A stretch of DNA of 64,000 bases. Source: Mobula hypostoma (lineage: Eukaryota). Positions 6,381 through 32,325 of this stretch are shown piece by piece. The translations under genes and the position numbers were made by a program. The notes beneath the pieces were generated by a model, which worked only from the letters and a program-made list of their open reading frames with translations, was not told where the DNA came from and made no database searches. Numbering within the stretch: position 1 is the stretch's first letter; every line of letters starts with the position of its first letter. The DNA is taken from NCBI RefSeq assembly GCF_963921235.1, contig NC_086097.1:76696001-76760000 (forward strand), read 5' to 3'.

Positions 6381-9066
6381 ATTCCAGTCTAATTCGGTTA
6401 GGCAGGTCAATGCTTGTGTTGCTGGGCATGCTCACGTGAAGTCTGTTTATTCCCATTCTTAGATGCTGCCTGACTTGCTGAGTTCCTCCAATATTTAGAG
6501 TGTGTTGTTCAAGATTTCCAGCATCTGTAGAATCTATTGTGTTTTTGAAGAGCCTTACTCCTTTTTGCTCTTACATTATTTAATTGATAACTGATTAACA
6601 TAATATGTATTGCCCAGGTGCAGCTTGAAGCTGATAAGTCCTGGTCAGCCTGAGTCCTCAGTACACACTAAATTGTTTCATCCAATATTACAGCCCGTTT
6701 TTGTGTTGCTGTGAGTCCACTGCACAGTTTGAGTGGAATACAAGATATATTTAAGTTGGCAGCCTTCTTCAGAGAGCAAGATAGAGTAACAGGCACAGAA
6801 AATGAGCACATCATACACGTGCACAAAGGTACACTTCTTTAGCAAGTGTGCCGTGTGGTCGGCAACCTTCTAAACAGCCATGCAGTCTCGTCGTGGATTC
6901 TTTGTGTAGACCAAGTTGTGTAAATGTGGTTAAAATTCTGTGATAGTACCTTGAATTAGAATGAGAAATGAGGAAATCACATAAAATGTCTTGGTGGGTG
7001 AAAGGGTGAATAAAATGACCTGAGTAGTCCTGGTGGAACTGCACTGATCAATGACTCAAACTGAAGTCAGCCTTGGAGTTTGATCATGATTTATGAAATG
7101 TGGCTGCCCAGGGGAGCCAAACTGATCAGTTTGTCACATCACTGGACCATTCAAGCTGGGCTGCAACAATGGCAGACTTGCTGATAATCCACAGTATTAC
7201 TTTATGATTTTGATGAGCTTTGTAGGCCAGGGACTCGGAAGACAAAGGGAAAATTAATTATTAAAGTTACTTTAATTTAGTTTAATTCCTCCAATATTTG
7301 TTTTTGTTTTTAATAGATTTTTTTCAATGTTTACATTCGTTTTTTAAATATTCATTTTAATTTTAATAGTTTTCAAATGTGCCCATGTCGGAGCCATTTC
7401 AGCAATGAAAATAACTTGCGTGATTTCAGGGCAGGTGAAGTTCTACTCCAACCTGCCATATCCCCCAAACATTTTCCAGAGGGAAGTCCTCTAGCCCATG
7501 CCAGCAATGGTAAACTCACCATCTGGACCATACCACAAGCATCACAGAAGTTCGCCACAATGGCCTAGGTAAGTCTGGGCATGCGAAGATCACGGCCAGA
7601 TGTTCCATGAAACGAGCCTGCTCTTGCATGGTTCACCCATTGATATTTCTGGCCTAGTAGTGCTTAGTTTAATTTAAACCATGGAATGTGTGAAAAAAAC
7701 ATTTCATCAATATAAAAATAAATAGAAAAGCTAACCATGTTAAATAATATTCTGCACCAAATTTATATTTGCTTTCAGAATACTAGAATTATTTTAGAAA
7801 TGGTATATAAGTTAATTTGAAAGAGTATACATACAGTGTGTTTTACATTACAGGTAAGATTTTAATTTCAGAAACTGAAGGGTCATCGCAGTGTATGAAA
7901 AGCTGCATTAACCATTCTAATGTTTTATGACCACAACACGCTGGCAGAGCAGTTACATAATATGTGGTTTTGTTACTAGTATCAGACCTCATGAAGTATT
8001 ACTGTATATAAAGATTCAGTAACGACTGCAGTTATTGAATGTTAACATTTGTCTACGTATTTATTCAAAGGAAGGGAAAATTTAAGTACAAAGTGGAAGA
8101 TTTCCCGTGTCTCGATGAATAATCCCATACGTTGCATTACTAATAACATCTTTATATTTGATAATTCCACTTCCTTAATGGTCAGCTAGTTCATCTTCAT
8201 ATTAACTTTCTTATGTACTGTCTGGTTCCTGACCAAACATACGCAATTGTACTTATCTGCAGTTACCTAATTGTGGTGGAGTTTTAAGAGTTCACTTGAA
8301 ATTTAAATACAATTCAATGGAAAAGAATCTTTTAGGAAAATATGTTCTTCCTATATGGAAGACAGTTGAAGGTACAGTAATAATGATCTTAACTTGCAAG
8401 TTTACTTCCTGGTCAGAACTGATCTCAGTCAGAATATTAATTTTGTATTATTTGGAGGAAATCAGGGATATAAACCACTGCTGGGAGTGCATTTATATTT
8501 GTATTCAGGGTGGAGTTTGGCTGGGGTGTTCTCGTGTCTCTTTTATCTTTGTTAATCACTAAAGATCAACCCGGAACCCAGAGAAAGTGGGATAGAGAGA
8601 AAATTCAAGAAATTGCCATTTGGCCTTTAATTCTTTGTCAGAAGTATAAAATCCCCCATGGCACTCATCATTTGTGTTATATGTAAGGAGCCAGCATTCT
8701 CCTACTACAGTTTAGAGCAGTGGCATCACGAAGTGGCCAATTTGAACAGCATGAATAATCGAACAACACAGAAGCTGATCAAACGCCAATGTCCCAGAAA
8801 GGTGTATTAGCTTTTGCATAGTTCCATGGATTTTTACAAGTTGTACCATATTACCTATCCTGTTGTTACAAATTCAAGCACATGGTTGAGTAACTTGGCA
8901 ACGGACTTGATACCAGATAAACAAAACAGACAAAAGTAAAAGATGGATCTTAATTCTTCACGTCATCTCTTTTCTTTTACTATCTAGTTTTGTCATTGTG
9001 CAATTCAAAGTACAGATGTCCATTACTGTGATGACTAACATGTTTTTTTTTGTTCTTTATTTGCAG

Positions 9067-9174
9067 TATGTTCCTCCAGACCTTTCCATCTGTGTTTTTG
9101 TGCTGGAGCAGTCATTGTCTGTCAGAGCCTTGCAGGAGATGTTAACCAGTACAAGTGAAATGAGCAATGAAGGG
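9067..9174 (+). CDS. RYR3: RYR3 exon 3 equivalent: [36 protein letters not shown]
   Basis: ttgcag| ... |gtaact; 108 nt; phase 0-0. Confidence 0.96.
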
Positions 9175-9859
9175 GTAACTATCAAACATTTAAGTATTTG
9201 ATTTTTCCACTCCATTATGCTCTAGAGTGAATGCTATTTCCAGGCCATAGGATTTTTCTTTGTTTAAAGTATTTACACTAGTCTGCTCATCATTGCTGTT
9301 TAGAAAATACCTATTTACAGACTCGTATCAAGTTGATTTGAATAGAATTGGCACCACAAATCAACATCCAAATTGTACACTGTTGCAAAGACTATTACCC
9401 TAAAGCATGGTGGAACAAAGAATGTACTGTGTGTTAAAATTTATATACTGATTAGATCACACTGGAGTATATCAGTCAGGCCTCCTCGTTACAAAGCCAA
9501 TGTGTGGGCACTAGAGAAAGAATATTCTTAAATATATATTGAGTACAGCACCAAAATTGAGAAAGTAGAGCTATTGGAGAAGTCTGAGTAGGCTGGGAGG
9601 TTTATCTCATTGCAAACAAAAGGATTGGTCTGATAGAGATCTTCATAATGATTCATGGGTTTGACAGAGTAGAATGCAAAGTGGCTTGGATTTTGCAGAT
9701 ATTGCATCAACAAAAAAAAGTGGTGCCTTCATTACACTGTAAAATGAACATCAACCAGGATTTCCACATAGAATAGGTTAACGCGAAATCCAGATATTGT
9801 GATCAGTGATTCAACATTTGCAGTCAGGGTGTAGGGCTCCTTAATCTTCTCTTAACAGG

Positions 9860-10096
9860 TGATGCACTATCAATTACTCCAAAAGACTGGAAGTAGAGTA
9901 AATACTGAAAGGCTTTAATTAGCAGTAAATGGTCCATGTCCCTGCTGAGTATCTGCCCCGGACTGAGGGAGGAGCAGTGGCACAATCGCCTTTATTCAGG
10001 GTTCTGTGGGAGGAGCCACAGGAGCAGTCAGCAGAGGGTCGTGTCCAGACAGGTAACCCAGTTACAACATTTATATATATATATGGTTTACCACCA
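9860..10096 (-). mobile_element. Short solo LTR
   Basis: TG...CA ends flanked by a cagg TSD; ATTAAA on the minus strand. Confidence 0.7.
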
Positions 10097-10554
10097 CAGG
10101 CTCATGGAGAATCAAATTTTGCTTTGTTTTGTGCAGTCTAGTCGATTTGAAGGAAATTTATAAGAAATCTTCAGAAGTATTCCATATCAAACTTACTGGC
10201 CCTAGAGAGAAATATATATGCGTAGATTTTATTTCCCTTCGATAAATTATTTCAAAACATAATTGATTTTAAATTTAAAATAAATGATTTATGGTATTTC
10301 AGCTTTTTCCTAAACTACTTCTGTAGCTATGATGGCTCATTTGTTATATTACTCAAAGTCTTAAAGTCTTATCAGTGGATATGAAGACATTACCATAACT
10401 GCTGGAGGAGGTGTTGATTCTGTTAAATAATTAGAAAATAAAAACATCAATTACATCGACTAACCTGCCAGATATCCATAATTGAAAACAAAAAGTAACC
10501 AAAATACTCAGCAGGTCCGCTTGAGTGTCTGGAGAGAGGGACAGGCTTGATGTA

Positions 10555-10650
10555 AATGCCCATCTGGTTCACTAATTTCTTCGAGGCAAGCAAATCTGTC
10601 GTCCTTATACTGCCTGTCCTATGTGGTTGACTTGTGACGGCCCCTTCCAA
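10555..10650 (+). mobile_element. SacSINE1/Deu-SINE-like fragment
   Basis: catctggttcactaat...aaatctgtcgtcctta resembles the recalled SacSINE1 3' part. Confidence 0.45.
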
Positions 10651-11660
10651 CACAAAAGTGGCAGTCAGCCAGCTCTAGGATTATTGAGAAAGGATCATTA
10701 GAATGAACAAGCTGGCCCTGCTAATTGTGTACTTAACTTGTCAGTGATGAAAAAGAGATTCTTATCTGTAATGAGAGTTCTGTAAAATGTTTGAAACCTC
10801 ATCAAAGAAACTCTTGGTTTCTAGTTCATGAGAATTCCTTCATGGGATTGTTCACTCAGTTAGCTTACCGACACCAAAGCATCAGAGATCCCTCCTTAAA
10901 GGGACATTGATAAAGGAGAAGTCCTCATCATGCAGAATGATAGATTTTTATTGACAGTTTTCTTGAGGGTCATGTTCATGGTTCACCCTGAATGTAAAAT
11001 TAGTCCTAAGATGCTTTCATGTGTAAATGAAGTCAAAAGAACACATCATCACTATTAGATGCTGCATAATAAATCTAAATGATATGTTCCGTATTGAAGG
11101 AGTGGTGAGGATTTGGGACTTACTACCATGTGAGTTAGTTAAGGTGCACACCCATGGAGGCATTTAAGGGGAACCCAGATGACTGAAGGCATAAAGAAAT
11201 GAAATATCATCTTTGTTGGGTTGAAATAAGGTCAGAAAAACCTTGTGCAAATCCTGGACCAGCAAATTCTATTTAAATTGGCTTCTTTGGTGTAGGTTCT
11301 CATTGTTTCAGAATCAAGAAGATTCAGTACATGTTCCCACCTGCAATGTTCTCTTTATTTAAAATAAAATCATCTCAGATCTTTTCTTTAATGGTGCATA
11401 ATACTCCAGTTTCAGATTTTAAGTTCCACTCTATTTTTTGAGGTGCTTAAAACTCTCCTTACTCAGAATGGTACAGACTAATGTCGTGCTAAGATATATC
11501 ATGTTATTTGAAAATCACTTATTTTGTTGAATTCATTATTAATAATAAATCATTGATATTATTTTGGCAAGTGTGTTGTCAAGTTCATGCATTTTCTTTG
11601 CTGAATTTTGCATATTTGTGTGACTTTGCAAATTAATTTAACTGTTGGATTTATTTGCAG

Positions 11661-11681
11661 CTCTTAAAATCTATTCCCCGT
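11661..11681 (+). CDS. Candidate 21-nt micro-exon LLKSIPR
   Basis: ttatttgcag|CTCTTAAAATCTATTCCCCGT|gtatgt; frame-preserving, no stop; no homology recognised. Confidence 0.3.
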
Positions 11682-12073
11682 GTATGTTGATAGCTGGATT
11701 ATTTGGTGTACTGTTCTCATCAGGAATGTACAGCTAACTGAAGAAGGTGATTCAGCCCACTACACAGCAGATGTTTTATGTCAATTTTTGTTTTCTGCAG
11801 CTGCAGTAAACTCCAATTGGTTCCTTCTGGGAAGAAAATTGGCAAAGTCCAAACTTTCCGGCCTAAACCAGACCCTGCAGTGTGGTGTTCTCTGAACAGC
11901 CTTCTTTGTTCAAATGTAATTAGGATGGGCAATCAGTTTGGCAACGTCCATATCCCATGAACAATAAATAAAAGAGTTTTCCAACGTGCAAAGTCAAAGG
12001 ATTTATCTGGATAAGATAGAGAAATGTACTTGTAATTTATTCTCTCTTTGCTGTTTCTTTTTTAACATGCTAG

Positions 12074-12094
12074 CCAATTGATTTCACCAAATGG
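12074..12094 (+). CDS. RYR3: 21-nt micro-exon PIDFTKW, homologous to RYR2 exon 4 (QVDVEKW)
   Basis: Pyrimidine tract, then aacatgctag|CCAATTGATTTCACCAAATGG|gtatgt; same length, phase and D..KW pattern as RYR2 exon 4. Confidence 0.82.
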
Positions 12095-12453
12095 GTATGT
12101 TTATTTCATTGGTTTTTCACCCTTCTTCTTACAAGCATGCAGTCAAAGTGTTGAACTCTAAACTTGCTTTCATAGGGCAAATTCCTTAAATTTGTTGTGT
12201 AATTGTATAATTATTTTTTAAAATTTACTCCTTTTAGTGATGGGATGAAAAGCAGTTTATTCAACTGTTTTCACTTCAACTGAAAGGGAAATGCGATTTT
12301 TGTTTATTATTTTGTATCTCTTTATTGATTAATTTGTTCTTAGGGAAAATATTCAATCATAAATTAGTGATCAGGTATGGTGAATTTTGCAACAATATCT
12401 GGTAATGCCTAAAGTGAGATGGCAGCAGTATCCAAACTTTAGCTGAACTGCCT

Positions 12454-12935
12454 TTCAAAGTTCAAAATTTATTATCAAAGTAAATATATATTACCATATT
12501 CTACACTGAGATTTGTCTTCCTGCAGGCATTCATAGGAAAAAAGAAATACCATAGATTTTACAAAAAAAACTTTGCTGACAAAGTTTTTTTCTATTATAG
12601 GAAACATTTATTCAGTGACATGGGTAGGTAGTTTCTTTTCTCATCTTGCTTTGCTTATTGATGAATCAGATTCAGATTTAATATCATTGGCATATGTCAT
12701 GAATTTTGTTCCTTTATGGCAGGAGTACAATATAATAAATATAGAGAAAAAAAACTGAGTTAGATTAATTAAGTATATATATGTATATCAAAATAACAGA
12801 AATAAAAATAAAAGTAGTGAGGTAGAGTTCATGGGTTCATGTTCATTTAGAAATCAGATGGCAGAGGGGAAGAATCTGTTCCTGAACCACTGAGTGTGTG
12901 CTTTCAGACTTCTGTACCTCCTTCCTGATGGTTTT
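12454..12935 (-). mobile_element. Two Rex1/Babar-like 3' end fragments
   Basis: ttcaaagttcaaa and aatcagattcaga tails, similar to the plus-strand Rex tails at about 20270 and 36950. Confidence 0.6.
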
Positions 12936-14649
12936 ATGATGCAATATTGTGGTGCTTCCTGACTGACAAACATAAGATTTAAGGACTCTGATGTAATAAG
13001 TAAACAGATTCATCCTATGAAAACTTATCAAAGTCAACCTTTGTTTCTAGTCTATGAGAACTCTTTCAGCTGATAAAATCATCATAAATATTTGCTGATT
13101 ACATATACCGTGGTTGAAGAAATCATGGAACCAGATAGAGGTGGACATGGCCCAGCTCTCACATTCCGGAAACCCACAATCATACTGAGAGATTGTGAAT
13201 GTGCAGATCCATACCCATTGCTATTGCTGTTGATTGAATTGGATTGGACCACAAGTCTGGACATAGAAACTGTCTTCATGCTTACAAATTGCCTGATAAC
13301 AGTTTGAAAGCTCATGCCATCAAAGGACTTTTCCATAGCTTCCGAATCTCTCCGATAATCAGTCACTTCAGAGCTAAAAATTGTTTACAAAATTCAAAAA
13401 CATTCTAAATTTACTTCAAATCACATTCATCTTAAAGTAACTGAACCATTAATATTAAAAGTAAAAATTTGGAAAATTTCATCGAAGATCTATTTGAATG
13501 AATAGGGGCAGCTGTGGCTAGTATAAAGCATGTTAGGCCAAATGCAAAGTATATTCAGCCCCTCAACTCCATAGATTATAGAACTGCTGCTGAATATGAT
13601 GCCAAGTGCAGCAGTGAAGCAAAAGATTGAATCTGTTGCCAGGTGATGTTTCCACCTTTACATTCTTCTGCTCTGCTATCTATCCAAAGGCATAATTCAA
13701 TGTTGTGAATAGGATTATGGAAATCGGTTGGATTTTTTTTGAGTGGTTAATCACAATTTTATGTCTATGAAGATGTAATATTAGCAGGAGATGAAAGGGT
13801 CCCCATTTTTCCCAGGGTTGGATTCTTCAGTAGTCTGATTCTCAGACTTCACCTTAACGCTAAGCTGTTTGCTGCCTTGAGCTTAATGAAGGTAAAGGGG
13901 AGGTGACCTTCACTGCCAAGTAGAAGGAAACTGACCATTTTGAAGAGGGCTATTTGCTGCAATGCCATTTAGGAGGCAGAGCAGTGGGTGGGCACACATC
14001 TTGCATTAAAACACCCAAACTAAACCAGCCTGTAACAGTTTCATGAGATGATGAGGTTAAAAAAAAACAGACATGGGAATTTTGTGAGATAATCCGGACT
14101 GACAATATTTTTACCCTGTAGCATTTGCAAACATTTTTTATGTGAAAAACCCCATTAAATGATTTTACTCAATTGATGCTGAATCTGCAGGTAATTGTGT
14201 CTTGACTATCAAAGGGAGAATATTTCCTGTGTTGCCTTGGATGATGGCCAAAAAGACATTAAATTAATAATACAATTTTACTCATCAGCAATTTAATTTG
14301 CTGACAATGACATGAAATTTTTTGAATATATTTTTATTTAAAGTGTTAATTGGAAAGTGCAAGCTCACAGAATATTTTTTAAATTTGATTTTTAAATATA
14401 GAAATGAACAGTTAAAATGAAATAAACTCAAAGGGTTCACAAAGTACTGAGGTTGTTGATTTATTTTCTTGAGAAATCTTAGTAAGCACATACTTAATAA
14501 CATGCTTTACTTGTATTAGCTCAAAGAGAATAATCCTTCTCTTTTGAATCAGAAATATTAGTAGCTACTAAATGTGCCTCTTTAAAATTGAAGGCAAACC
14601 TTTACATCACCTTGACTAGTCCCATCCCCATCCTGAACTTGAACAAAAG

Positions 14650-15200
14650 AAATATAAGAAAATTAAAATAAAAAATCTGGAACTCTGAAATGAAAGGAAG
14701 TGCTATAAATGCTCAGTTAGACAGTGTCTGTGGAAAGAGAAACAGGGTTAACATTTCAAGTTGGAAATCCTTTGTTTAGACTTGAAGAGTGAGTAAACAA
14801 GTTTTACGTTGCAGCCAAGTTGGAGGAGGGGTGATTCAGACCAAGTAGTGTTTAGCTGTAGATGTAATCATGTGGTTAGTAGATTATGTGAAGGACAATT
14901 CATTGAGTGCAAAGGATGGTGACTTGGAAAGTGAGAGCAAAGAGAACTCTACTACTGCTGTGTTCTGCAGAAGAGGGAGTGAGAGCAGAGAAGTAGGACA
15001 CAGATCATTAGAAAAGACATGTCAGGAGATATCAATCAAGAGACTCCACCAAAATCTTAACACTGCAGCAAGCCATGCCTCACCTGTCAGAGATAAACCC
15101 TTTGTTCCATGCAGCCTAATTCCAACCTCTCTGCAATATAAAGCTAATTATTATCCCCTTCCCAGAAAGTCTGCCTCACCCCAAGAACAGGCTCAAGTTG
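14650..15200 (-). mobile_element. Old degenerate Penelope-like fragment
   Basis: aatgctcag...tctgtggaaagagaaacag..ttaacatttc tail motif. Confidence 0.4.
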
Positions 15201-15204
15201 TCAT

Positions 15205-15490
15205 TTAACCATATACTGCCAAAGGAAACAATGTTCCTCCAGACCAAGGTGCACAACACAGTGCATGCAACTCGCATACACAACACATAAAGTAAAATTA
15301 CCATGAATAAATTAACAAATAAAAAGGTGCATTTATGACTCAAGTTAAAAAGTAAACATATGACACTACTGATGCTTCATATGTGATGAGACCTGGGTGG
15401 TGGAATCGAATTCAGTGATCTTATAGCCTGGGGGAAGCTGTTTTCCCATCTTAACAGTTCTTGTCTTAATGCTATGGTACCAGCTGCCAC
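15205..15490 (-). mobile_element. Rex1/Babar-like 3' fragment
   Basis: Minus strand reads NSFPQAIRSLN. Confidence 0.6.
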
Positions 15491-15539
15491 ATGTGTGCCA
15501 CAGCTCCTGAGGTGATGCTGGATTGTGTAGCAAGAGAGA

Positions 15540-18500
15540 GAGTTCAAAAGTAGCGAGCGGAGGCAGTCAGGACATTCTGTGTGCCTCGGTTCCCAAGGAG
15601 ACATTGGATTGTGCATAATTAGGAACTTGGCAAGGGCCAATAAAAAGTAGTTTAAGTGGAGCAACCAATGCAGAAGTGGACATTGTCAGAGTGGAGAACT
15701 CTGGCTTTGGCTCATAGAGGCTTCAGTGAGGAGAGACAAAGACTGTAGGTAGATTTTTTACTGTTTAATTTTTATTTCTATCTTTCTTATTTCAAGTTAG
15801 AACACTGGAGATGCCAGGCAGGATAATGGAATTCTCCTCTTGCAGGATGTGGGAAGGCAGGGAGATCCCTAGTGTTCCTGATGACGACACCTGCAAGATG
15901 TGGTTGGGCAGAAAGAACTACAGTCTGCAGATCAGTGGATTCGAATGAAATAAGGACAGTGGAAGCAGGCAGGCTAATTGTCTTGGTAGTTACCATGTGT
16001 TTGAAGGAAATGGAGGTGGCCATTTTGAGAGGCTGTCCTTGCAGACCCCCATTTTGTGTACTCTGAACTGATTCTTGCTCTGGGACACTCTATTCAGAAC
16101 AATTAAATGTGGGCACAAGGAGTTTCTGTTGTTGACTTGTTAAGCCTGAGAGAATTCTCAGATAAGCTGTGTATTGTGTAGAATGGCAGATTTGCAGAAG
16201 TAATCTTGTTAGATTTAGGGTCTGGGAGAACCATAAATTACCAGTAGCCAATAACACTGCAAGGTACAGCTATACAGCTTTGGATACTGTTGGGGGGAGG
16301 ATCAAGCAGAAAAAAAAACACAGCAGTCAAGTCTCTGGAATTGAGCCTGATTCTGTGGCTCAGAAGGGAAGGGGTAAGAAGAGGAGTGCAGTAGTGATAG
16401 GGGATTCCGTAGTTAGCAGAGCAGACAGGAGATTCTGTGGACATGAAAGACACACTCAGATGGTATGTTGCCTCCCAATTGCCAGGATCAAGGATGTCTT
16501 GGATCAGGTCCACCATGTTCTAAAAGGGAAGAGTGAGCAGCTGTAAGTCATGGTACCTATTGGTACCGATGATATAGATAGGAAAAGGGAAGAGGTCATA
16601 AGAGAAAATATAGGGGGTTCGGTAGAAAGCTGAAAAGCAGGACCTCCAGGGAAGTAATTTCTGCATTGTTGCCTCTGCCGCGTGCCAGTGAGAGTAAGAA
16701 TTGGATGATTTTGCAGCTGAATGCATGTCTGAATAATTGATGTAGGGGCCAAGGTTTATGAGTTCTGTAACATTCTGTAACTTCTGGGGAAAGAGGTGAC
16801 ATAGGATTGGAAGATGTAGAATCCTTAAAGAACTGCAAAAGTAAAAAGATCATGATGGGAGTTATATGCAGGCCTCTGAACAGTAGCCAGCATGTGGGGT
16901 ACAAATTACAGCAGGGCATAAAAAAGGATTGTAAAAAGGTTAATGTTACGAAAGTCTTAGGAGTTTTCAATATGTAGGTAGGTTGGAAAAATCAGGTTGT
17001 TGCTGGATCCTAAGGGATGGAATTTATAGAATGCCTACAAGATGACTTTTTAGAGCAGTTTGTGGTTGAGCCCACTAGGGGAAAGGCAATTCTAGGATTA
17101 GGTGTTGTGTAATGAACCAGATTTGATTAGGAAGCTTCAGGTAAAGGAACCATTAGTAGACAGTGATCATAATATGATAGAATTCACCCTGCAGTTTGAG
17201 AGGGAGAAGCTAAAGTCAGCTATGTCAGTATTGCAGTAGAGTAAAGGGAATTGCAGATGCATGAGAGAAGAACTGGCCAAAGTTGATTGGAAGGGGACAC
17301 TATCAGGAATGACAGCAGAACAGTATTGGCTGGAGTTTCTTGGAGCATTTTCAGAAGGTGCAGGATCCCAAAGAAGAAGTATTCTAAAGGGAGGATGAGG
17401 TAACCATGGCTGACAAGGGAAGTCAAAGATTGCATAAAAGGAAAAGAAAGAGCCTGTAATATAACAAAAATAAATGGGAAGTTAGATGATTGGGCAGCTT
17501 TTAAAAACAAACAGAAGACAACTAAAAAATCTATAAGGAGAGAAAAGATGAAATGTGAAGGTAAGCTAGCCAATAATATAAAAGAGGATTCCATTTTTTT
17601 TCAGATTTATAAAGAGTAAAAGAGGAGAGGGTGGTTATTGGACTGCTGGAAAATGACGCTGGAGGAGGGGTAGTAATGGAGGACAAAGAAATAGCAGATG
17701 AACTTAAGTTTTTATGTTAGTCTTCACTCTGGAAGACACTAGCAGTAGTATGCCCGAAATTTGAGCATGTCAGGCAGCAGAAATGAATGCAGTTGCCATT
17801 ACTGAGGAGAAGGTGCTTGGGAAGCTGAAAGGTCTGAAGGTGGATAAGTAATCTGGACCAAATGAATTACACCCCAGGGCTTTGAAAGAGGTAGCTGAAG
17901 AGATGTGAGGGCATTAGTAATGAAGTAATTAGTAATCTTTTTAGAATCACTAGATTCCGAATGGTTCCAAAGGACTGGAAAATTACAAGTGTCACTCCAC
18001 TCTTTAAAAAGGGAGGGAGGCTGAAGAAAGGAAATTAAAGACTAGTTAGCTTGGCTTCAATGGTTGGGAAGATATGGAGTCCATCATTAAGGATGAGGTT
18101 TTGGGGTTCTTAGAGGCGCATGATAAAGTAGGCCAATGTCAGTATGGTTTTCTTCAAAGGAAATCTTACCTGATAAATATCTTAGAATTCTTTGAGGAAA
18201 TAACAAACAATATAGACAAAGAAGAGTCAGTGGATGTTGTTTGCTTGGATTTTCAGAAAACCTTTGACAAGTTGTTGCACATAGGACTGCTTAATAAGAT
18301 AAGAGACCATGGTATCACAGGAAAGATATAGCATGGATAGAAGTTGCAGTTGCTTTACCAGCAGGAGAGAAAGAGGGAAATAAAGAGATCCTTTTCTGGT
18401 TGGCTGCCAGTGACTAGCTGTGTTCCACAGGGATCTGTGTTGGGACTGTTACTTCTCATGTTATATGTTAATGATTTGGATGGTAAAATTGATGGATTTG

Positions 18501-19386
18501 GGGCCAGTTTGCAGAGAATATGATGACAGATGGAGGAACCGGTATTGTTGAGGAAGTAGGGATAGTGCAGAAGGACGTAGACAGATTGAGAGAATTGGTA
18601 AGGAAGTAGCAGATAGAATACAGTGTTGGGAAGTGTATGGTCATGCACTTTGGTAGAAGGAACAAAGGTGTAGACTATTTTCTAAATGGGGAGAACATTC
18701 AAAAATCATAGGTGGAAAGTGACTTGGGAGTCCTTGTTCAGGATTCCCTAAAGGTTAATTTGCAGGTTGAGTGGTGACAGAGAAGGCAAATGCAATGTTA
18801 GCATTGCATGTCTCAGAGGACTAGAAAGTAAAATCACGGATGTAATGCTGAGACTTTATAAGGCATTGGTCAGACCACACTTGGAGTATTGTGAGCAGTT
18901 GTGGGCCCCTTATCTAAGAAAGGTGCTGGCATTGAAGAGGGTCCAGAGGAAGTTCACAAGAAAGATTCTGGGAACAAAAGGGTTAATATATGAAGAGTGT
19001 TTGATGGCTGTGGACCTGTACTCATTGGAGTTTAGAAGAATGTGTGGGATCTCATTGAAACCTGTTGAATATTGAAAGGCCTAGACAGAGTGGATGTGGT
19101 GAGGATGCTTCCTACAGTAGATGAGTCTAGGAGCAGAGGGCACAAACTCAGAATAGAGGAACGCCCTTTTAAAACCAATGAGAACTGTATTCAGCCAGAG
19201 GGTGGTAAATCCGTGGAGGCCAAGAAATTTGGTATATTTAAAGCAGAGGTTGATAGGTTCTTGATTATAGGTTATCAGGAGAAGGGGGTTGAGAGGGATT
19301 AACAAATTGGCCATGATAGAATGGCAGAGCCGGCTCAGTGGGCTGAAGGGTTTAATTCTGCACTGACGTGTTATGGTCTTATGGTA
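15540..19386 (+). mobile_element. CR1 LINE, near full length but decayed (ORF1 with GDS/SGNH esterase, partly deleted endonuclease, RT)
   Basis: AVVIGDSVVSRADRRFCG, DVVCLDFQKTFDK, LVRPHLEYCEQLWAP; ttatggtcttatgg tail. Confidence 0.9.
15899..16235. mobile_element. Probable solo LTR interrupting CR1 ORF1
   Basis: TGTGGTT...AACCATA near-inverted ends, internal ATTAAA; no clear TSD. Confidence 0.45.
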
Positions 19387-19389
19387 GGG

Positions 19390-20520
19390 GGTCAAAAAGA
19401 TTGTTCAACGGATGGGAGGGATCTTTGTCAATTCTAAGAACGCTGTATATGCAGCGCTCCTGAACTATCAATAATGGGTGGAAGAGAGACTCTGAAGCAG
19501 TCGTCTCAATCCTTTGTGGGGACTTGCGGTCAGATGCGTTGCAATTCCCGTATCAGAGGACCTGTCCTGGGTCCAACGCATAAGTGCAATTATGAAGAGT
19601 GCACTGCAGGATCTCTACGTCCTTAGGAGTTTGTGGAGATTTGGCTTGACGTCAAAACTTGACAAACTTTTAGAGGTGTGTAATGAAGAGTATATTGATG
19701 GGCTGCATCACAGCGTTGTATGGAAGCACCAATGCCCTTGAATGGAAAATTCTATAAAACGTAACGGATACGGCCCAGTCCATCACGGATAAAGCCCTCC
19801 CGACCATTGAACATGTTTCCATGAAACGCTGTCGCAGGAAAGCAGTATCCATCATCGGGGATTCCCACCACCCAGGACACATTCATTTCTCATTTCTCAA
19901 GAGCCTTAGGACTTGTACCACCAGGTTTAGGAACAGTTATTGCCCCTCAGCCATCAGGCTCTTGAACAAACAGGATAAATTCACTCAACTTGACTTGCCC
20001 ATCGTTGAAATGTTCCCACAACCAATGGACTCATTTTCAAAGACTTTTCATCTCATGTTTTCAATGTTTGTTGCTTATTTATTTATATTATTGTTTCTTC
20101 TTTTTGCATTTGCACAGTTTGCTGTTTTCTGCAATCTGGTTGAAAGCCATTTTGGCAGTCGTTCATTGATTCTGTTATAATTACTTTTCTATAGAAATGT
20201 TGAGTATGCCCACAAAAAAATGAATCTTAGGGTTGTATATGGTGACATATATATACTTTGATAATGAAATTTACTTTATATTTTGATGCAGCCAGTCAGG
20301 ACTTTCTTGATGGTGCTCCTGTAAAAATTGGTTAGAATGATGGTGGGGTGGGGGGACTCCTCACTTGCTTCAAGCTCCTCAGGGAGTGGAGACACTGCTG
20401 TGCTCTCTTGACCAAAGAGGCCATTACGTGCACTTCTAGAAAGCTGGTACTCCTAACTCTCTCCATGGAGGAGCCACTTATGTGCATTGAGTGGTCAGCC
20501 TGCACCTTCCTAAGATACTC
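19390..20520. mobile_element. Nested Rex1/Babar-like fragments (plus-strand 3' copy at about 19545-20280 inside a minus-strand copy)
   Basis: SLRTCTTRFRNSYCPSAIRLLN. Confidence 0.7.
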
Positions 20521-22965
20521 CTAAAGCACCTCCTGAGAATGTCCAGTCTTCACCTAAAACTAACCAACTCGTTCCAGTTTTGTGTGACACTAAGTTTTAA
20601 AAGTGATTTTGCGATCTAATGTGCGTAAGATATAGATTGCATTATCTGTTCCCACTTCCATACTGGATTGTGTAAATGTTTGCAAAAGTACAGAGCAGCC
20701 ACTGGAGAAAATGTTGATTTACTTGTCTTCTGATCTCAGTTTATTTTACATCTAGGAGCTGCTGCAGCTGATTCAAGCCCCTTCTGCTTGCGGGCTGAAA
20801 ATGCATTTCTGCTGATGCAGATATGGTCCTTGGTTCATTTTTGGTTGGTCAGATATGTTTAAAACAATCTATCCATAGCAGTAATTCTGTTCTAGGAACA
20901 AGACACTATCTAATTTGATTTTGGTTAGCGAATACATTTTTGGAAGCTTTTACTGTGGCGTAATGGAATTGATCTTCTAGCCAACTTACTTACTGAGCCT
21001 ACTTATCATTACTTTAATTTAATTGAACCCAGCAGTGTGACTTTAGTAAATGATTTAAGAACTGCTTATCTTCAAGTCCAAAGGAAGTTGGTAAAAAGTT
21101 AATCATAAATTTTATCATGGAAGCCTTTTTGTCTGTTTGTAAGTGAACTAAAAATATTAGTTTTCCAAAATGTTTTTTATTTCATCTTGTTATTACAAAA
21201 TACCTAAATTGTTAATCTTGTTATACTCCATTTTTAAAGATGCACTGTTTCAGATTAAGTGTATCAACTTTGCAATTTCTTACCTTTCTTGGGGATTTTA
21301 AGGTTACATGTCCTCTGTATGAAAATGAAAACTGGAAGTCCTGCTCTTGTGGCTCTACGTACAAGTGGTCACTTCCATCATAATCCACCTTGTATATATT
21401 TATTAAATATTGACAGTCCTGTTAATTTTCACTGGGATTATCCTGAGTTTATGTTTAACTGTGCATTATGGGAATGCAGTTTCTGATGTTGTCATTCATT
21501 GACTGCAAAGACAAATATGTAAATGTTTTATAAATAAGTATTTCTTGTTCACTGGTGGGTACAAATTATATGAAATGCAACCTTCTGCAGTGAGAGTTGC
21601 GGAACGTTAGCGGATTATTTCAAGGCAAACCCTCACAAGTTGCCTCTCTTAAATAGTTGATTTTTAAAATTTAAAGCCATTAATGGTACATAATCTAATG
21701 TGACATTTGCATTTGTCATTGGGACTTGGCAATGTGAATGGCAGTTAAAAATGTGCTTCAATAACTTCCAAGATCTAATGGTTTAGTTGAATTTTAAATG
21801 CGACATGACAAATGACTTTTATTGAGTAATTTCTCTGGAACATCATATACTTCCTTGACATTGTGTGGTATGGTAATTGAACTACAATGAATTCTGATAC
21901 ACTGCCCCTAAATAATAAAGCTTTTCTCAGAAGTTTGTGGACAAAAGCTATAGTTTATGGTTGGATTTTGCAACATTATGTTAGGTATATCGATCTCCTT
22001 TCAAGAAGTCTAAATTCTGAAGAATTTTGTGTTCAAGTCAGGTTATAACCAACCAGTACATCTGCACACCAACCTTTGTCTTTAACAAACACCTTCAATT
22101 ATCATTTTTATATACTGAGTCAACCTAACCAAAATCATAATGCAAAGAGAAAACCTGTCTAATTACAGTACTTTAGATGCATAACTTTATTTATTTTATT
22201 GTGTGGAATAGTCACCATGAATTTGAAATGATGTGCATGGTAGTGGTAAAATGCTGTTGCAGAAAGTAAAATGTAGAATAAATGCCAACGGGATCCATGC
22301 ATGGGAACATAAACATAAATCATATTGAACCCATCGCCTGGCTTCAGTAGAGCAATTAAGGTGGCACAGCCTTGGAAGCGTGTTAATTCTGCCTACATTC
22401 CTGACCAATACAGTATAGATAACCACATCTAGAAAGACCAGAGGGCTAGAATAAAGACTGTGAATGGTAGAAGTTCATCAGAATGTTAAAGAAGCACATT
22501 ATGGGTCTAAGGCCAGATCTCAAAAAAGATAATTAGATCAAACTATATCATGATACAACAATCATATTTTTTTCCTTTTGATTTCTAGGGAGGGAGTAGT
22601 GCTTACAAGATCTGCTCATAATTTAGAATATCTTGTAGGGTTCTCCATTTTACATTTGCAGATTGATTTAATTTGTAGAGAGTAAGAATTCATTCTTAAA
22701 GAACAATATTGATTTTATTTTATTATTACACTATTACATAATACTATCATGTACTTGGCTTAGTTACAATTTACATCAGAAACAAAAATCACAATTTCTA
22801 CTTACAACATATAAAAAGGACTCTTTTAATTACACAGTTTACACTAATTTTTTTTATACCTGGTACATAATGCCATCGTCGACTGTAGTTCCTTATGGTA
22901 AAAACATTGACCAGCAGGACATAGCTAAAGATTTCTTTGTTTTGTTTTGTTTTTATTGCATTAAG

Positions 22966-23016
22966 GGCTCTATCAAAAGAAGTTCCATCAGTGCCAAGAA
23001 GAAAAAATCTCTGAGG
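22966..23016 (+). CDS. Candidate 51-nt cassette exon GSIKRSSISAKKKKSLR
   Basis: tttctttgttttgttttgtttttattgcattaag| ... CTGAGG|gtaactatc; open in phase 0; lies between the two RYR2-like micro-exons. Confidence 0.5.
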
Positions 23017-24811
23017 GTAACTATCGTTGCTCTGATATTTCTATAAAGAGGAAAAATACAGTTTAGGTTAAGTAGTACCATTAAGTGGTAATGGCTACTA
23101 ACAAAAACCACTAAAATCGTTATTTATCATGTGCATTCAATAATTTTCCAATTGGGAGAAAAATTTGCTGAATTTAACAAAAAGAGCTGCAGGTAGTCAC
23201 TATAGCCGTATCTGACTGAGCTGTGTACGACTCTCAATGAATAAACCAGACTGTTTTGTGCAACAGAGTCTACTAGTGATAAATAGGGGTAAGAAGATTT
23301 TGTTAGTTTACAGCAGCTACCAGATCAAATTAGTGAACAAATATAAATAATAGCTTTTAATATTATTGGATGTTTGTGACTTTATTAACATTCTACATTA
23401 TTTTAACAGTTATCAGTATAGATAATTATTTCACATGGAATGATTAGACTTGTGTCATTCCTTGTCACGTGCTTGGTGCATCTCCAAGTACAAATCCATG
23501 ACAAATTGCTTTCATGTTACTATGTAAGCAAAGACAGCAGACAATTTGAAGATGCCATTTAAAATAAATGACAAGGTACTAAGTTTGGTGATTATGGTTA
23601 GGTAAGCAAGTTGATTTGAAAAATCCTGATTTTTGAATGGACACTTGGATTTTTTACATCTGTCTCAGTAGGAATCTAGCTTGACTTTTTATTCAAAGCT
23701 TAATACATTTGGCCATTATCATGCTAAATTTGTGCCTCGCGTTTGTGTTTGCAAGTGAAAACACCATCTAAAAGATAGTTATACAGTTAACAGTTCATGA
23801 AAAACTACTTTACTAATGTATTGTAGAATATTCACCCATAATTTAAACATTAAAACTTACACATTAGCATTGTTCAGCAAGAAAATTAATGCAAAGTTTG
23901 AACTATATATAAAGCAATTCTTAAAAGTTTGATTTTGATGGCATCCCATTAAAATGATTGTAAATTGAAATAAAAAAGGTTACTTGTACTATTTTCCTAA
24001 ACTGTGGTGTTATTTTTCCAAAATAGATATGGTAAATCGAGAAATTCCCTTTGTCATTCAATTACTCTTGGAATTTTATACTTTGTTCCTATACCTTAAA
24101 AAATCTCGGTTATATTTCACTTTAAAATTGCCTGTATAATCTTATCAGGCTGTATTTAAAATTACCCACCAGTGATGCTGCTATAGTGTCTTAGTTTTTT
24201 GTCATTTAGCTCTTCAACTTGTGATAGAGTAGTCCAATCATTCCAACCACACTTGGTTCCTAAATTTAACTACACAATAATGTAACATAAATATGTTCTG
24301 CTTTTCTAACTTTAAATCAGAGGATAATTTTAATTGCAGAACTATGAAGATTGATTATGGAACAAATGTATAAGGTTTGTTCTTAATAATTCTCAGTAAA
24401 CTATTAGAAGATCAATGTGACACTATTATGTTCCCACTAGGATTTTCTGATGAAATCTCAATTCAATTTACATTTAGATTAAAATTTTGCTTTCAAGGAG
24501 ATGACTATACTTATAAGACAAGGTGTACAAGTTTGACTCACAATATAAAATGATATATTGATATTTAATACAAGTTGGAAGGCAGAATCCAGATTCAAAT
24601 GTACCTATAATAGCTATCTTGGCAATTTTTACACTTAAATAATCCATCTTGTTTTAAAATTACATACACTTCAATATTAAAGTCTCCATGTAATGGGTGA
24701 GCTATTTGAAATGCCTACACATCTTTCACACAGTTGATTTGATGCAGAATGCAAAAACAGGCATAATAATCTTAATCCATGTTATTTGCTTTCATCTTTT
24801 CTGCTTTCCAG

Positions 24812-24826
24812 AGATTTATGATAAAG
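24812..24826 (+). CDS. RYR3: 15-nt micro-exon RFMIK, homologous to RYR2 exon 5 (KFMMK)
   Basis: ttcatcttttctgctttccag|AGATTTATGATAAAG|gtaagt; consensus splice sites, same length and phase as RYR2 exon 5. Confidence 0.88.
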
Positions 24827-25657
24827 GTAAGTTAATTTGCTTTTTCAGCTCATGGTCCATTGAAAAATAATACTAGTTACCTGACTGCTGTGTTAGCACT
24901 TAGTGCAAAATTCCTGTACTTTTGCCAAATGGTACTATCCTGATTGAAACCCATTTATAATGTTAGCAAACATCGGCAGTGATTATTGTTCTTAAAAACA
25001 CAGAAGTTCTAAACCTTCCTCTATCTTTTCAGTAAACATGCTATGCATAACTTGCATAGATATAATCAATTATATAGATTGCAATTGGAAACAAAATAAA
25101 AACATCACTTCAAAACTGCAGTCAATATAGATTAATATTGAGGTAAAACAAATTTATCGTGCAGTACAAAGGACATGTAGACAGAAACCTAAATTTATTA
25201 GGGAGTAAAATGTTAAAAATAAGTGAGAACTAATAGTTCAATTTACTCAAATCTGATGTTGGGCTACAAATGAAAGGGGAACTATCAGGACCAGTGCCAA
25301 TCTTACTCTGATATATCATCCACTTGTTTCTTAGTGCAAACTGTGGATGTTCCCATTTCTCCAATCATAGTGCCTGCTGTACTCAATATTCCACTTCCTT
25401 GAAATGCAGTAACATCCTTATTGATGCATTATACTCATTGATTACATAACATTATACTTCTCATCATTTCATTGAGAATTGGAAAAAGGTGTAATGCCAG
25501 AGAATTCATGGAAATCTAATAATTATTCACCATAATGAAATTAAAACACTCTCAAGGAATTATGGTCAACTAGGTTTTCTAATATAAAGTTAATGAAATC
25601 CCTACTAGCGTCATAGAACTATAGAACAGTACAGCACAGAAACAAGCCCTTTGACCC

Positions 25658-28600
25658 TGCTGGTAAAGAATGGCATCAAATCAGTAGAAAGATGTGGAAG
25701 GCTTAGAAGATGTAGAATCCTTGTGGGTTGAGTTAAGAAACTGCAAGAGTAAAAGGACCCTGATGGAAGTTATTTCCAGGCCTCCCAACAGTAGTTAGAT
25801 GTGGAGAACAGATTACAATGGGAATTAGAAAAGGCATATCTAATGGGCAATGTTACGATAGTTATGGGAGATTTCAACATGCAGGTGAATTGGGGAAAAT
25901 CAGGTTGGCAATGGATTTCAAGAGTGAGATTGTTGAATGTCTTTTGTGACGGCTTTTTGAGAGCGGTTTATTGTGGAGCCAACTAAAGGGATCAGTTATA
26001 CTGGATTGGGTGTTATGAATGAACCAGAGGCGATTAGGGCGCTTAAGGTAAAAGAACCTTTAGGAGGCAGTGATCACGATATGATTGAGTTCAACTTGAA
26101 ATCTGATAGGGAGAAAGTAAAGTCTTAAGTAGCAGTATTTCAGTGGAGTAGAGGAAATTACAGTGGGATGAGAGACGAGTAGGCCTAAGTAAATTGGAAG
26201 GAGATAGGGATGACAAGAGAGCAGCAAAGGCGTGAGTTTCTGGGAACAATGAGAAATGTACAGGATAGATGTATTCCAAAAATTAAGAAATACTCAAATG
26301 GCAAAATAGTACAACCGTGGCTGAGAAGAGAAGTCAAAGCTAATGTATAAGCAAAAGAGAGGGCATACAACAAAACAAAAATTAGTGGAAGGTAGAGGAT
26401 TGGGAAGCTTTTAAAAACCTACAGAGAGCAACTAAAAGAATCATTAGGAGAGAAAAGATGAAATATGAAAGCAAGCTAGCAAACAATATTAACGTGGGTA
26501 GTTAAAGCTTTTTCAAGTATATATAAAAAAAAGAGAAATGAGAATGGATATAGAACCCCTAGAAACTGAGGCTGGAACAATAAATGGGGACAAGGAGATG
26601 GCAGATGAACTAAATGAGTATTTTGCATCGGTCTTCACTGTGGAAGACACCAGCAGTGTACCAGATGTTGAAGGGTGTGAGGGAGAGAAGTGAGTGCAGT
26701 TACTATTACAAGGGAGAAGGTGCTCAAAAAGCTGGAAGACCCAAGGGTACATAAGTCGTCCATCCAGATGAACTGCACCCTAGAGTTCTGAAAGAGGCAG
26801 CAGTAGAGATTGTGGCGGCATTAGTAGCAATCTTTCAAAAATCATTGGACTCTGGCATGGTACCAGGAGACTGGAAAATTGCAAATGTCACTCTACTCTT
26901 TAACAAAGGAGGAAAGCTGCAGAAAGGAAACTATAGACCAATTAGCCTGAACTTAGTGGTTGTGAAGTGGGTAGTGGCTCCATATGTCACTACTACAGGG
27001 CGTGACGACCCTGCCTTACATGAGTCCCGCTCAGCTGGCTCTGGTTGACAGTACCTGGTATGGTCCCCTATCCCAGGGTTGTGGATCCTACTGCCTTGTG
27101 GGTAACTTCAGGAGATGAGAAAGTTAAGGAGTAAACCCTACGCAAATCCAGAGTGGAGCCCCTAAGGTGGTTGGGTGACGTATCACATCACCTCCCGGCA
27201 GCTCCTGCAGCCAAGCTGATGCCAAATATACTGCTTTGCATTCCTTTGGACCACATCTGCAAGGCCGAGAGGGGGATCTTGATGTCTGGGCAGCCCAGGA
27301 TCTCCATATTTATTGCCCAGGTCTGCGCCACGGAACGGGTGCATCATTGTCTACTTAGACGGAGCCATGAAGTGGTTGGGAAAATGTTGGAGTCAACTGC
27401 TAAGGATGAAGTTATGGAGTACTTGGTAACACAGGACAAGCTGGGACAAAATCAGCATGGTTTCCTTAAGGGGAAAATCTTGCTTGACAAATCTGTTGAG
27501 ATTCTTTGAGGATAATGCAAGTAGAATAGATAAAAGGGGATGCAGTGGATGTTGTATATTTGGACTTTCAGAAGGCCTTTGACAGGGTGCCACATGTGGT
27601 GTTGTTTACCGAGTTAAGAGCCCATAGTATGACAGAAAAGTTACTGGCATGGTTAGAGCATTGGCTGCTTGGTAGGAGGCAGTAAGTAGGAATAAAAGGA
27701 TCCTTTTCTGCTTGGCTGCCAATGACCAGTAGTGTTTTGCAAGGGTCAGTGTTGGGCTTACTTTTTATGATAAACTTCAATGATTTAGATGATGGAATAG
27801 ATGTCTTTTGTTGCCAAGTTTGCAGATGATACGAAGATTGATGGAGGGACAGGTCATGTTGAGGAAACAGGTAGGCTGCAGAAGAACTTAGACAGATTAG
27901 GAGAATGGGCAAGAAAGTGGCAAATGAAATACAATGTTGTAAAATGCATGGTCATGCACTTTGGTAATAGATATAAATGTGCAGACTATTTTCTAAATGG
28001 GGAGAAAATCCAAAAGTCGGAGGTGCAAAGGCACTTGGGCGTCCTTGTGCAGAACACCCTAAAGGTTAACTTGCAGGTTCAATCAGTGGTGAAGAAGACA
28101 AATGCAATGTGAGTATTCGTTTCAAGAGGTCTATAATAAGAGAGCAGGGATGTGATGCTGAAGCTTTATAAGGTACTGGTGAGGCCTCGCCTTGAGTATT
28201 GTGAACAGTTTTGGTCCCCTCATCAAGGAAAGATGTGCTGGTATTGGAGAAGATTCAGAGGAAGTTCACAAGGATGATTCTGGGAATTAAAAGGTTATCA
28301 TACAAGGAATGTATGATGGCACTGGGCCTGTTCTTGCTGGAATTTAGAAGGATGGGGGTGATCTCATTGAAACCTTTTGTTGAAGGACAGAATAGATATG
28401 AAAAGGACGTTTCCCATGGTAGGGGAGTCTAGGACAAGGGGGCACAGCCTAAGGATAGAGGGGCATCCATTTAAGACAGATGCAGAGTAATTTATCTAGC
28501 AAGAGGGTGATGAATTTGTGGAATGTGTACTACAGGAAGTTTGATTGGATACGGCATCAAAGATTACGGGGAGAAGGCCAGGGAATGGATCTGACGCGAA

Positions 28601-28684
28601 ATAAGGATCAGCTATGATTGAATGGTGGAGCCGACATGCTGGGGCAAATGACCTAATTCTGCTCCTGTGCCTTATGGTCTTATG
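25658..28684 (+). mobile_element. CR1 LINE ORF2, 5'-truncated, gaccc TSD
   Basis: VMGDFNM, GNYRPISL, KFADDTKI; ttatggtcttatg tail; gaccc at 25653-25657 and 28685-28689. Confidence 0.9.
26967..27370. mobile_element. Unclassified ~400-bp non-autonomous insertion in CR1
   Basis: Duplicated flank agtggttg(t/g)gaa; subterminal inverted tggctcc/ggagcca. Confidence 0.65.
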
Positions 28685-29867
28685 GACCCATCTAGTCCAT
28701 GCCAAACCATTAATTTGCCTAGTCTCATCGATCTGTACCCGGAGCATGGCTTTCCATACCCCTTCCATCTATGTACCAATCCAAATTTATCTTGAAGCCT
28801 GAAATCGAACCCCCCTTCACCACTTATGCTGGCAGCTCCAGACTCTCTGCTCCCTCTGAGTGAAGAAAGTCTCCCTCATATTCCGCTTAAATATTTCACC
28901 CTTCATCCTTAACCCATGACTTCCAATTGTAGTCTCACGCAACCTCAATGGAAAAAGCCTGCTTGCGTTTACCTTATCTATACCCAACATAAATACGTAC
29001 ACCTCTATCAAATCTCCCCTCAATCTTCTGCATCCTAGAGAATAAATCATAACCCATTCGCAATAACTCAGGTCCTCAAGTCTCGGCAACACTCTTATAA
29101 TATTTTTCTGCACTCTTTCAGATTACTTACATCTTTCCTATAGGTAGGTGACCAAAACTGCATACATACCTCAAATTATGCCTCACCAATGTTTTGTACA
29201 CCTTATATTTGTCTGCATTAAATCCTATCTGCCATTTTTCAGCGCATTTTTCCCAGCTGATCCATATCCCACTGCAAGATTTAATAGTCTTCTTCGCTGT
29301 TTACTGCACCCCCAATCTTGGAGTCATTTGCTAACTTGCTGATCCAGTTTGTCACATTAGCAGTCAGATTGTTGATACAGTCAAGAAATAACAATGGTCC
29401 CAGCGCCGATCCCTGTGGCACTCCACTAGACACAGTCCTGCAGTCGAGAGGCGACCATCTACTATCACTCTCTGGCTTCTCCCACGAAGCCAATACCTCA
29501 TCCATTTTACTGCCTCATCTTGAATGTCAAGCGAATAAACCTTCTTGACCAACCTCCCATGTGGGACCTTGTCAAAGGCCTTGCTAAAGTCCATGTAGAC
29601 AACATCCACTGCATTGCCTTCATCAACTTTCCTGGTAACACTCTCAAAAATCTCTATAAGGTTGGTTAGACATGAGCTACCAAGTACAAAGCCATGTTGA
29701 CGATCCCTAATCGGTCTCTTGTCTATCCAAATGCTTATATATCCATTTCAAAGAGTACCTTCCAATAACCTTCCCATTACTGACATCAGGTTCACTGGCC
29801 TCTAATTTCCTGGCTTACCCTTAGAGCATTTCTGAAACAGCGGAACAACATTAGTTAACCTCCAATT

Positions 29868-32250: not shown

Positions 32251-32325
32251 GCAGCTCAAGGGGGTGGACACCGAACCCTTCTTTATGGTCATGCTATTCT
32301 TCTCCGGCATGCATATAGTGGAATG
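32251..32325 (+). CDS. RYR3: RYR3 exon 4 equivalent: [25 protein letters not shown]
   Basis: tttttag| ... |gtgagt; 75 nt. Confidence 0.97.

Follow-up and report, generated by a model that had tools for sequence, protein, structure and literature searches.

The window analysed here (the whole 64,000-nucleotide stretch of Mobula hypostoma DNA, part of the contig that we call C1 in a genome of 3.48 Gb) carries, on its plus strand, coding exons for the N-terminal region of a ryanodine receptor (RyR), and within one long intron of the gene lie two very short segments that resemble exons 4 and 5 of RYR2. We consider it likely that the gene is the RYR3 of a cartilaginous fish, of which the window covers the N-terminal part, that the two segments, here called m1 and m2, are genuine micro-exons orthologous to RYR2 exons 4 and 5, and that they belong to an ancestral cassette that was unevenly kept and is independently regulated; their splicing, their alternative use and their effect on the protein are what we infer by comparison with RyR2.

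Both segments and their neighbours can be read directly from the sequence. With its borders, m1 reads catgctag/CCAATTGATTTCACCAAATGG/gtatgt (PIDFTKW) and m2 reads ctttccag/AGATTTATGATAAAG/gtaagt (RFMIK). The exon before them, a homologue of RYR2 exon 3, is bordered as tttgcag/TATGTT...GAAGGG/gtaact and encodes YVPPDL...SNEG, and the exon after them, a homologue of exon 6, is bordered as ttttag/GCAGCT...GGAATG/gtgagt and encodes AAQGGGHRT...SGM. Between these two exons, m1 comes first and m2 second, 21 nucleotides (nt) and then 15 nt, each bounded by AG and GT and with all borders in phase 0. The direct reading bears out the first-pass annotation, which had pointed to two such segments in the right order within a 23-kb intron. 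Since all the borders are in phase 0, every combination of m1 and m2 keeps the reading frame, and four isoforms are therefore possible, with neither exon, with m1, with m2 or with both. On the RyR3 structure 9c1e, the two flanking exons are contiguous (residues 58–93, then 94–118); on the solved RyR2 chains, they cover residues 58–89 and 105–128, with a gap of 12 residues between them. The coordinates of all the features are given in Table 1.

Table 1. Features of the RYR3 gene in the window (positions counted from the first letter of the window).
Feature	Position	Strand	Details
RYR3 exon, homologue of RYR2 exon 3	9067..9174	+	phase-0 end; RyR3 chain 9c1e residues 58–93
3' splice region of m1	12039..12073	+	pyrimidine tract, UGC at −25 and −6, YAG
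Candidate micro-exon m1, homologue of RYR2 exon 4 (QVDVEKW)	12074..12094	+	21 nt, PIDFTKW, donor gtatgt
3' splice region of m2	24777..24811	+	89% pyrimidine tract, UGC at −25 and −10, CAG
Candidate micro-exon m2, homologue of RYR2 exon 5 (KFMMK)	24812..24826	+	15 nt, RFMIK, donor gtaagt
RYR3 exon, homologue of RYR2 exon 6	32251..32325	+	phase-0 start; RyR3 chain 9c1e residues 94–118
13 more RYR3 coding exons, to about residue 622 of P0002	34155..63300	+	ends of tblastn high-scoring segment pairs, splice sites unrefined

How unusual are such segments within an intron of this size? Stop-free candidates of the form AG-(9–30 nt, multiples of 3)-G[TC] number 910 in the 23,076-nt interval, and only two of them, m1 and m2, passed a splice-signal filter that demanded at least 70% pyrimidines upstream, a YAG acceptor and a donor matching GTRAGT in at least five of six positions; this is a simple filter of our own and not a trained splice-site model. 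The encoded peptides were scored with BLOSUM62 over 267,202 nt, made up of both strands of the window and seven loci from the introns of the paralogues. A score of at least 22 against QVDVEKW was reached by 2 of the 644 AG-21nt-GT candidates, namely m1 of the window and its counterpart in the RYR1 paralogue, and a score of at least 19 against KFMMK by a single one of the 761 AG-15nt-GT candidates, which was m2. One further segment, KFIIK at 12465–12479, was considered as a second m2 and was rejected, as it is without an in-frame AG acceptor and lies within a high-depth repeat. Judged by position, length, phase and sequence, m1 is the homologue of RYR2 exon 4 and m2 that of exon 5, with the pattern xxDxxKW in the first pair and basic-F/L-hydrophobic-hydrophobic-basic in the second, and being the best matches among these candidates, they uphold the earlier identification of the segments as counterparts of the two RYR2 exons. 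We regard them as genuine coding micro-exons that are very probably spliced.

The assignment of the gene to RYR3 comes from two lines of evidence. Three RyR genes are present in this genome, on the contigs C1 (the window), C22 and C40, and they differ in the residues at their exon borders. The junction of exons 2 and 3 reads PTSEAK/YVPPDL on C1, STSNSK/NV on C22 and PTSNAK/NVPPDLAICSF on C40, and exon 6 starts with AAQGGG, (T)TQGGG and SSQGGG, respectively. Named RYR3 proteins have the signature PTSEAK/Y[VI]PPDL in common with the window gene, whereas RYR2 has STSNSK/NV and RYR1 has TSNA[QK]/NV. Furthermore, a tree was built with IQ-TREE (LG+G4, short search) from 19 rows and 1059 columns, comprising exon composites of the three genes on the coordinates of the catshark protein P0002 (insert excluded) and 16 named proteins. 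The window gene and P0002 (Scyliorhinus torazame, 963 residues) fell inside the RYR3 clade, C22 in the RYR2 clade and C40 in the RYR1 clade, each with a support of 100 in the Shimodaira–Hasegawa-like approximate likelihood ratio test. When P0002 was aligned to the window exon by exon, its residues from about 40 to 622 were covered at 75–100% identity per exon. By the phylogeny and the signature, the window gene is a true RYR3 orthologue; it does not group with RYR2, and the first-pass annotation was right to call it RYR3-type.

The RYR1 paralogue in the same genome carries a segment of the same kind. At C40:15614053-15614073 (locus L022), in the interval flanked by the homologues of exons 3 and 6, the sequence reads ag/CCTCTTGATCTGGACAAATGG/gtatgttt, which encodes PLDLDKW. 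By our comparison of the sequences, this segment and m1 of the window have the same base at 15 of 21 positions and share the donor gtatgttt over all of its 8 bases. A convincing 15-nt partner was not found in the 29-kb interval between exons 3 and 6 of this gene.

Do the homologous exons also occur in annotated proteins? The junction was read in 352 fetched proteins, and those that span it and have a paralogue signature were tallied. Among 102 RYR3 proteins, 92 have neither exon, 6 the 21-nt exon only, 4 the 15-nt exon only and none both. The corresponding numbers for 57 RYR2 proteins are 51, 0, 3 and 3, and for 19 RYR1 proteins 16, 3, 0 and 0; one more RYR2 entry with both exons, P0052, fell outside the tally because its signature class was 'other'. 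The count of 0 of 102 RYR3 proteins with both exons is no proof that an annotated RYR3 of this kind is absent, because the protein searches ranked insert-free and shorter proteins first and the proteins reached were at most 4815 residues long.

The 21-nt exon appears as LSDLSEW in six mammalian RYR3 entries, from mouse (AAI44720.1/B7ZMP2), two bears, squirrel, pig and horse; AAI44720.1 is an accession of a type that we take to derive from a sequenced cDNA clone. Three more RYR3 entries stop in the intron directly after this exon, namely Grammomys P0069 (LSDLSEW), bat P0020 (ISDLSEW) and Xenopus P0076 (PSDLSRW). The 15-nt exon is found in four teleost RYR3 entries, as RLIRK in Paramormyrops, RLIRR in Sinocyclocheilus, LIKR in Notothenia and KFIKR in Myxocyprinus, the last of which was missed by the search pattern and added by eye. 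In RYR1, VDLDKW is present in one bird and two teleost entries. These entries speak against two claims of the first-pass annotation. The insert had been labelled 'RYR2-specific', and the label does not hold, since RYR3 entries have the 21-nt exon in mammals and a frog or the 15-nt exon in teleosts and RYR1 entries have the 21-nt exon. It had also been inferred to be lost or silenced in canonical mammalian RYR3, and a loss does not hold for the 21-nt exon in view of LSDLSEW in the RYR3 entries of mouse, bear, squirrel, pig and horse. As for RYR2 itself, the bird entries P0129 and P0150 and about 45 others join ...EEKAEG straight to SAQGGG, with both micro-exons skipped, and some salmonid and mammal-like RYR2 entries retain KFMMK alone.

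Because homologues are found at the same place in RYR2, RYR3 and RYR1, the insert would predate the split of the three paralogues. An origin before that split is supported by these comparisons, RYR1 included; the first-pass annotation had placed the insert before the separation of RYR2 and RYR3, and this now extends to RYR1, with PLDLDKW in the present genome and VDLDKW in a bird and in teleosts. The cassette would have been present before RYR1, RYR2 and RYR3 separated and would afterwards have been retained unevenly, both exons in the RYR2 of bony vertebrates, m1 in RYR1, m1 in the annotated RYR3 of tetrapods and m2 in the annotated RYR3 of teleosts. The RYR3 gene of the window seems to keep the full cassette, that is, both exons. 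We also put forward, tentatively and with some doubt, a broader reading in which the window RYR3 would be the only RYR3 so far with the complete two-exon, 12-residue cassette, and the loop known from RyR2 would already have been modular and separately spliced in the single pre-duplication vertebrate RyR. The two halves would then have been kept differently by lineage, with RYR1 and the tetrapod RYR3 retaining m1, the teleost RYR3 m2 and RYR2 both, and the paired UGC motifs described below would place the surface of domain A under SRRM3/4-type tissue control in all three channels.

What would the two exons do in the protein? In RyR2, the deletion of exon 3 takes out Asn57–Gly91, just before the 12-residue segment of the N-terminal domain A, according to one account (PMC10311407). 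If spliced in, m1 and m2 would lengthen a surface loop of domain A by up to 12 residues (PIDFTKW and RFMIK), at the place where RyR2 has QVDVEKWKFMMK. The rescue of the RyR2 exon 3 deletion is the subject of work by Lobo and colleagues in 2011, with a brief summary in PMC8560800; the rescuing strand reportedly comes from this 12-residue segment. By analogy with exon 4 of mammalian RYR2, m1 and m2 may act as independently regulated cassette exons, so that the loop would be lengthened by 7, 5 or 12 residues, which would tune the surface of domain A.

The sequences upstream of the exons offer a hint of how such a choice might be controlled. In the 35 nt that precede m1, m2 and the m1 of RYR1, UGC occurs twice in each case, with one copy no more than 12 nt away from the exon. 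Of 238 pyrimidine-rich AG sites in the window, 13 show this arrangement, as does 1 of the 10 ordinary exons checked in the gene. Two UGC motifs in a pyrimidine tract are described as the SRRM4 element of the TAF1 micro-exon (PMC6948980), and micro-exons that depend on SRRM3/4 are given as 3–27 nt long (bioRxiv 10.64898/2026.05.02.722430), a range in which both m1 (21 nt) and m2 (15 nt) fall. As a speculation, the paired UGC motifs may hint at SRRM-type regulation of m1 and m2. This hint sits uneasily with what is described for RyR2, where the seven-residue exon 4 is alternative and tissue-specific and is found in the heart but not in islets, the cerebrum, the cerebellum, the pituitary or the adrenal (PMC9033130, PMC12109991); with exon 4 skipped in the brain, a simple model of neural inclusion does not fit.

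Several observations weigh against the reading of m1 and m2 as used RYR3 exons of ancient descent. Their sequence basis is one cartilaginous-fish genome. Within its own RYR2 gene, clear homologues of exons 4 and 5 were not found in the 43.4-kb interval C22:23249857-23293261 (loci L016–L020), and this weakens a simple picture in which the exons are always conserved. Two weak candidates lie there in the right order, a 24-nt segment encoding TRTGQYRW with good splice sites (C22:23290861-23290884) and after it a 24-nt segment encoding GRRFLIKP with poor splice sites (C22:23292569-23292592). When sequences of the runs X1, X3, X11 and X12 were aligned to positions 9000–28999 of the window at 80% likeness, no joint or loose end was seen at 9174, 12074, 12094, 24812 or 24826; repeats (12335–13001, 15003–20338 and 25008–28999) filled the tables, and none of the runs is on record as RNA. 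Among the database proteins, the large majority of the RYR3-type entries inspected (92 of 102) are without either insert, though the searches favoured insert-free and shorter proteins. Every one of the six junction-spanning mammalian RYR3 entries that contain the 21-nt exon is a fragment (127–143 residues) continuing past exon 6 into the intron, so that in mammals the exon is documented in fragments and not in a full-length RYR3. Finally, the gene model of P0002 jumps from ...HNEG to AQGGG, without both exons, though the model may have missed them. The first-pass annotation had warned that gene predictors would easily miss exons this short; the P0002 model, which skips both, fits that warning, but the skip is no proof that exons were missed.

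Further sequence data bear on the same sites. For runs X1–X4, which we guessed to be RNA, the shares were 0.21–0.23, about what is expected from exonic words alone by our own arithmetic. In X11, record 12 (another organism) spans 11893–12482 with 15 differences; in X12, record 17 (another organism) spans 10096–12531 with 147 differences and record 22 spans 20489–25640 with 303 differences. Because these contigs cover both sites, the DNA around m1 and m2 can be aligned at about 94–97% likeness, a figure for the region as a whole and not for the exons in particular. Scans of metagenomes with degenerate patterns for m1 and for m2, each with its splice sites, gave 0 matches each.

Three other explanations have to be set against the preferred one. 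With 910 short in-frame candidates of the form AG...G[TC], the interval leaves room for some of them to resemble RYR2 peptides by chance, as short open segments in a 23-kb intron might. Strong splice signals are nevertheless confined to two of the 910, which are the very segments in question; each of these is the best match to its own RYR2 counterpart in the 267 kb searched (644 and 761 candidates); and their order, phase and lengths are those of RYR2, with a near-identical m1 in the RYR1 paralogue. On this evidence, chance resemblance is excluded for practical purposes. It is more conceivable, though still improbable, that the segments are relics, former cassette exons that look intact and are no longer spliced into the RYR3 mRNA. 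The lack of joints at their borders in the alignment described above, swamped by repeats, at 80% likeness and from runs not on record as RNA, would agree with this, as would the 92 insert-free RYR3-type proteins. Unused segments of 15 and 21 nt would not, however, be expected to keep their frames, AG/GT borders, pyrimidine tracts and donors over hundreds of millions of years, and m1 and m2 are the sole candidates of the 910 with strong signals; homologous exons are also present in the RYR3 entries of mammals and teleosts.

The remaining alternative accepts both exons and denies their regulation: the standard RYR3 of cartilaginous fishes would simply carry the 12-residue loop, with no regulated skipping. 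Both segments have strong splice sites, m2 even a perfect GTAAGT donor behind its 89% pyrimidine tract, and cardiac RyR2 carries both exons, so this alternative deserves some weight. We nonetheless think it unlikely, as other genes and species include the homologous exons in some entries and skip them in others (RYR2 retains KFMMK alone or lacks both exons, and RYR3 and RYR1 occur with or without an exon) and the two upstream UGC motifs fit regulated micro-exons. The catshark model P0002, which has neither exon, points the same way, although there the exons were perhaps simply missed. Independently regulated micro-exons in a genuine RYR3 gene therefore remain the explanation that we prefer.

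Some features of the intervals between the exons were observed alongside. The intron of the window holds two blocks of highly repeated DNA, at 15003–20338 and 25008–28999, and the bin 12335–13001 is likewise very repetitive. The contig joints 18662>28058 and 19267>28557 link the two blocks, and because contigs join them about 9.3 kb apart, the blocks look like copies of the same repeat family. In the RYR2 gene of this genome, the exon 3 homologue (C22:23249857, locus L010) is followed by gcaagt, and the intron seems to use a GC donor; these bases also agree with P0116 (...EGAS...), a read-through protein from Chiloscyllium. P0001, a Logan contig from a close relative, is a spliced transcript of exons 1, 2 and 3 that extends beyond the exon 3 donor into the intron, as ...NNEGVTIKIKH, and then reaches a stop (window 9175–9198). 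The short mammalian RYR3 entries similarly extend into an intron, in their case the one that follows exon 6. Short transcripts of the N-terminal part of RYR3 may be common.

What do these results add? They represent a refinement of gene annotation, with no new mechanism or new kind of biology. They correct the common simplification that the 12-residue insert of domain A belongs to RyR2 alone, and in its place they offer the picture of one two-exon cassette that would have been kept or dropped across the three vertebrate RyR genes. They also flag two exons that gene models of RYR3 in sharks are likely to overlook, and they point to alternative N-terminal isoforms of RYR3 and RYR1, for which we found no discussion in print. 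In full-text literature searches on RyR micro-exons and on splicing of RyR3 exon 4, no paper on N-terminal micro-exons of RYR3 was found. Taken singly, each exon can already be found among the RYR3 entries deposited for other vertebrates; their joint presence in one RYR3 gene may be new, as may the picture of an ancestral cassette that was unevenly retained.

Compared with known systems, m1 and m2 are closest in arrangement to exons 4 and 5 of mammalian RYR2. They share with these the place (between the exon that ends in ...EG and the exon that starts with xAQGGG), the lengths, phase 0, and some of the residues, namely D, K and W of m1 and F, M and K of m2; unlike them, they belong to another paralogue, and the identity comes to no more than 3 of 7 residues for m1 and 3 of 5 for m2. 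The 21-nt exon of tetrapod RYR3 (LSDLSEW; PSDLSRW in Xenopus) resembles m1 in lying in the orthologous gene and in its position, its length and its xxDxxxW pattern, whereas the 15-nt exon is absent from those entries. Conversely, the 15-nt exon of teleost RYR3 corresponds to m2 in gene, position and a pentapeptide of basic, hydrophobic and basic residues, and in this case it is the 21-nt exon that is absent from the entries, which are gene predictions. The 21-nt exon of RYR1 (VDLDKW; PLDLDKW in this genome) matches m1 in position and length and differs from it in belonging to another paralogue.

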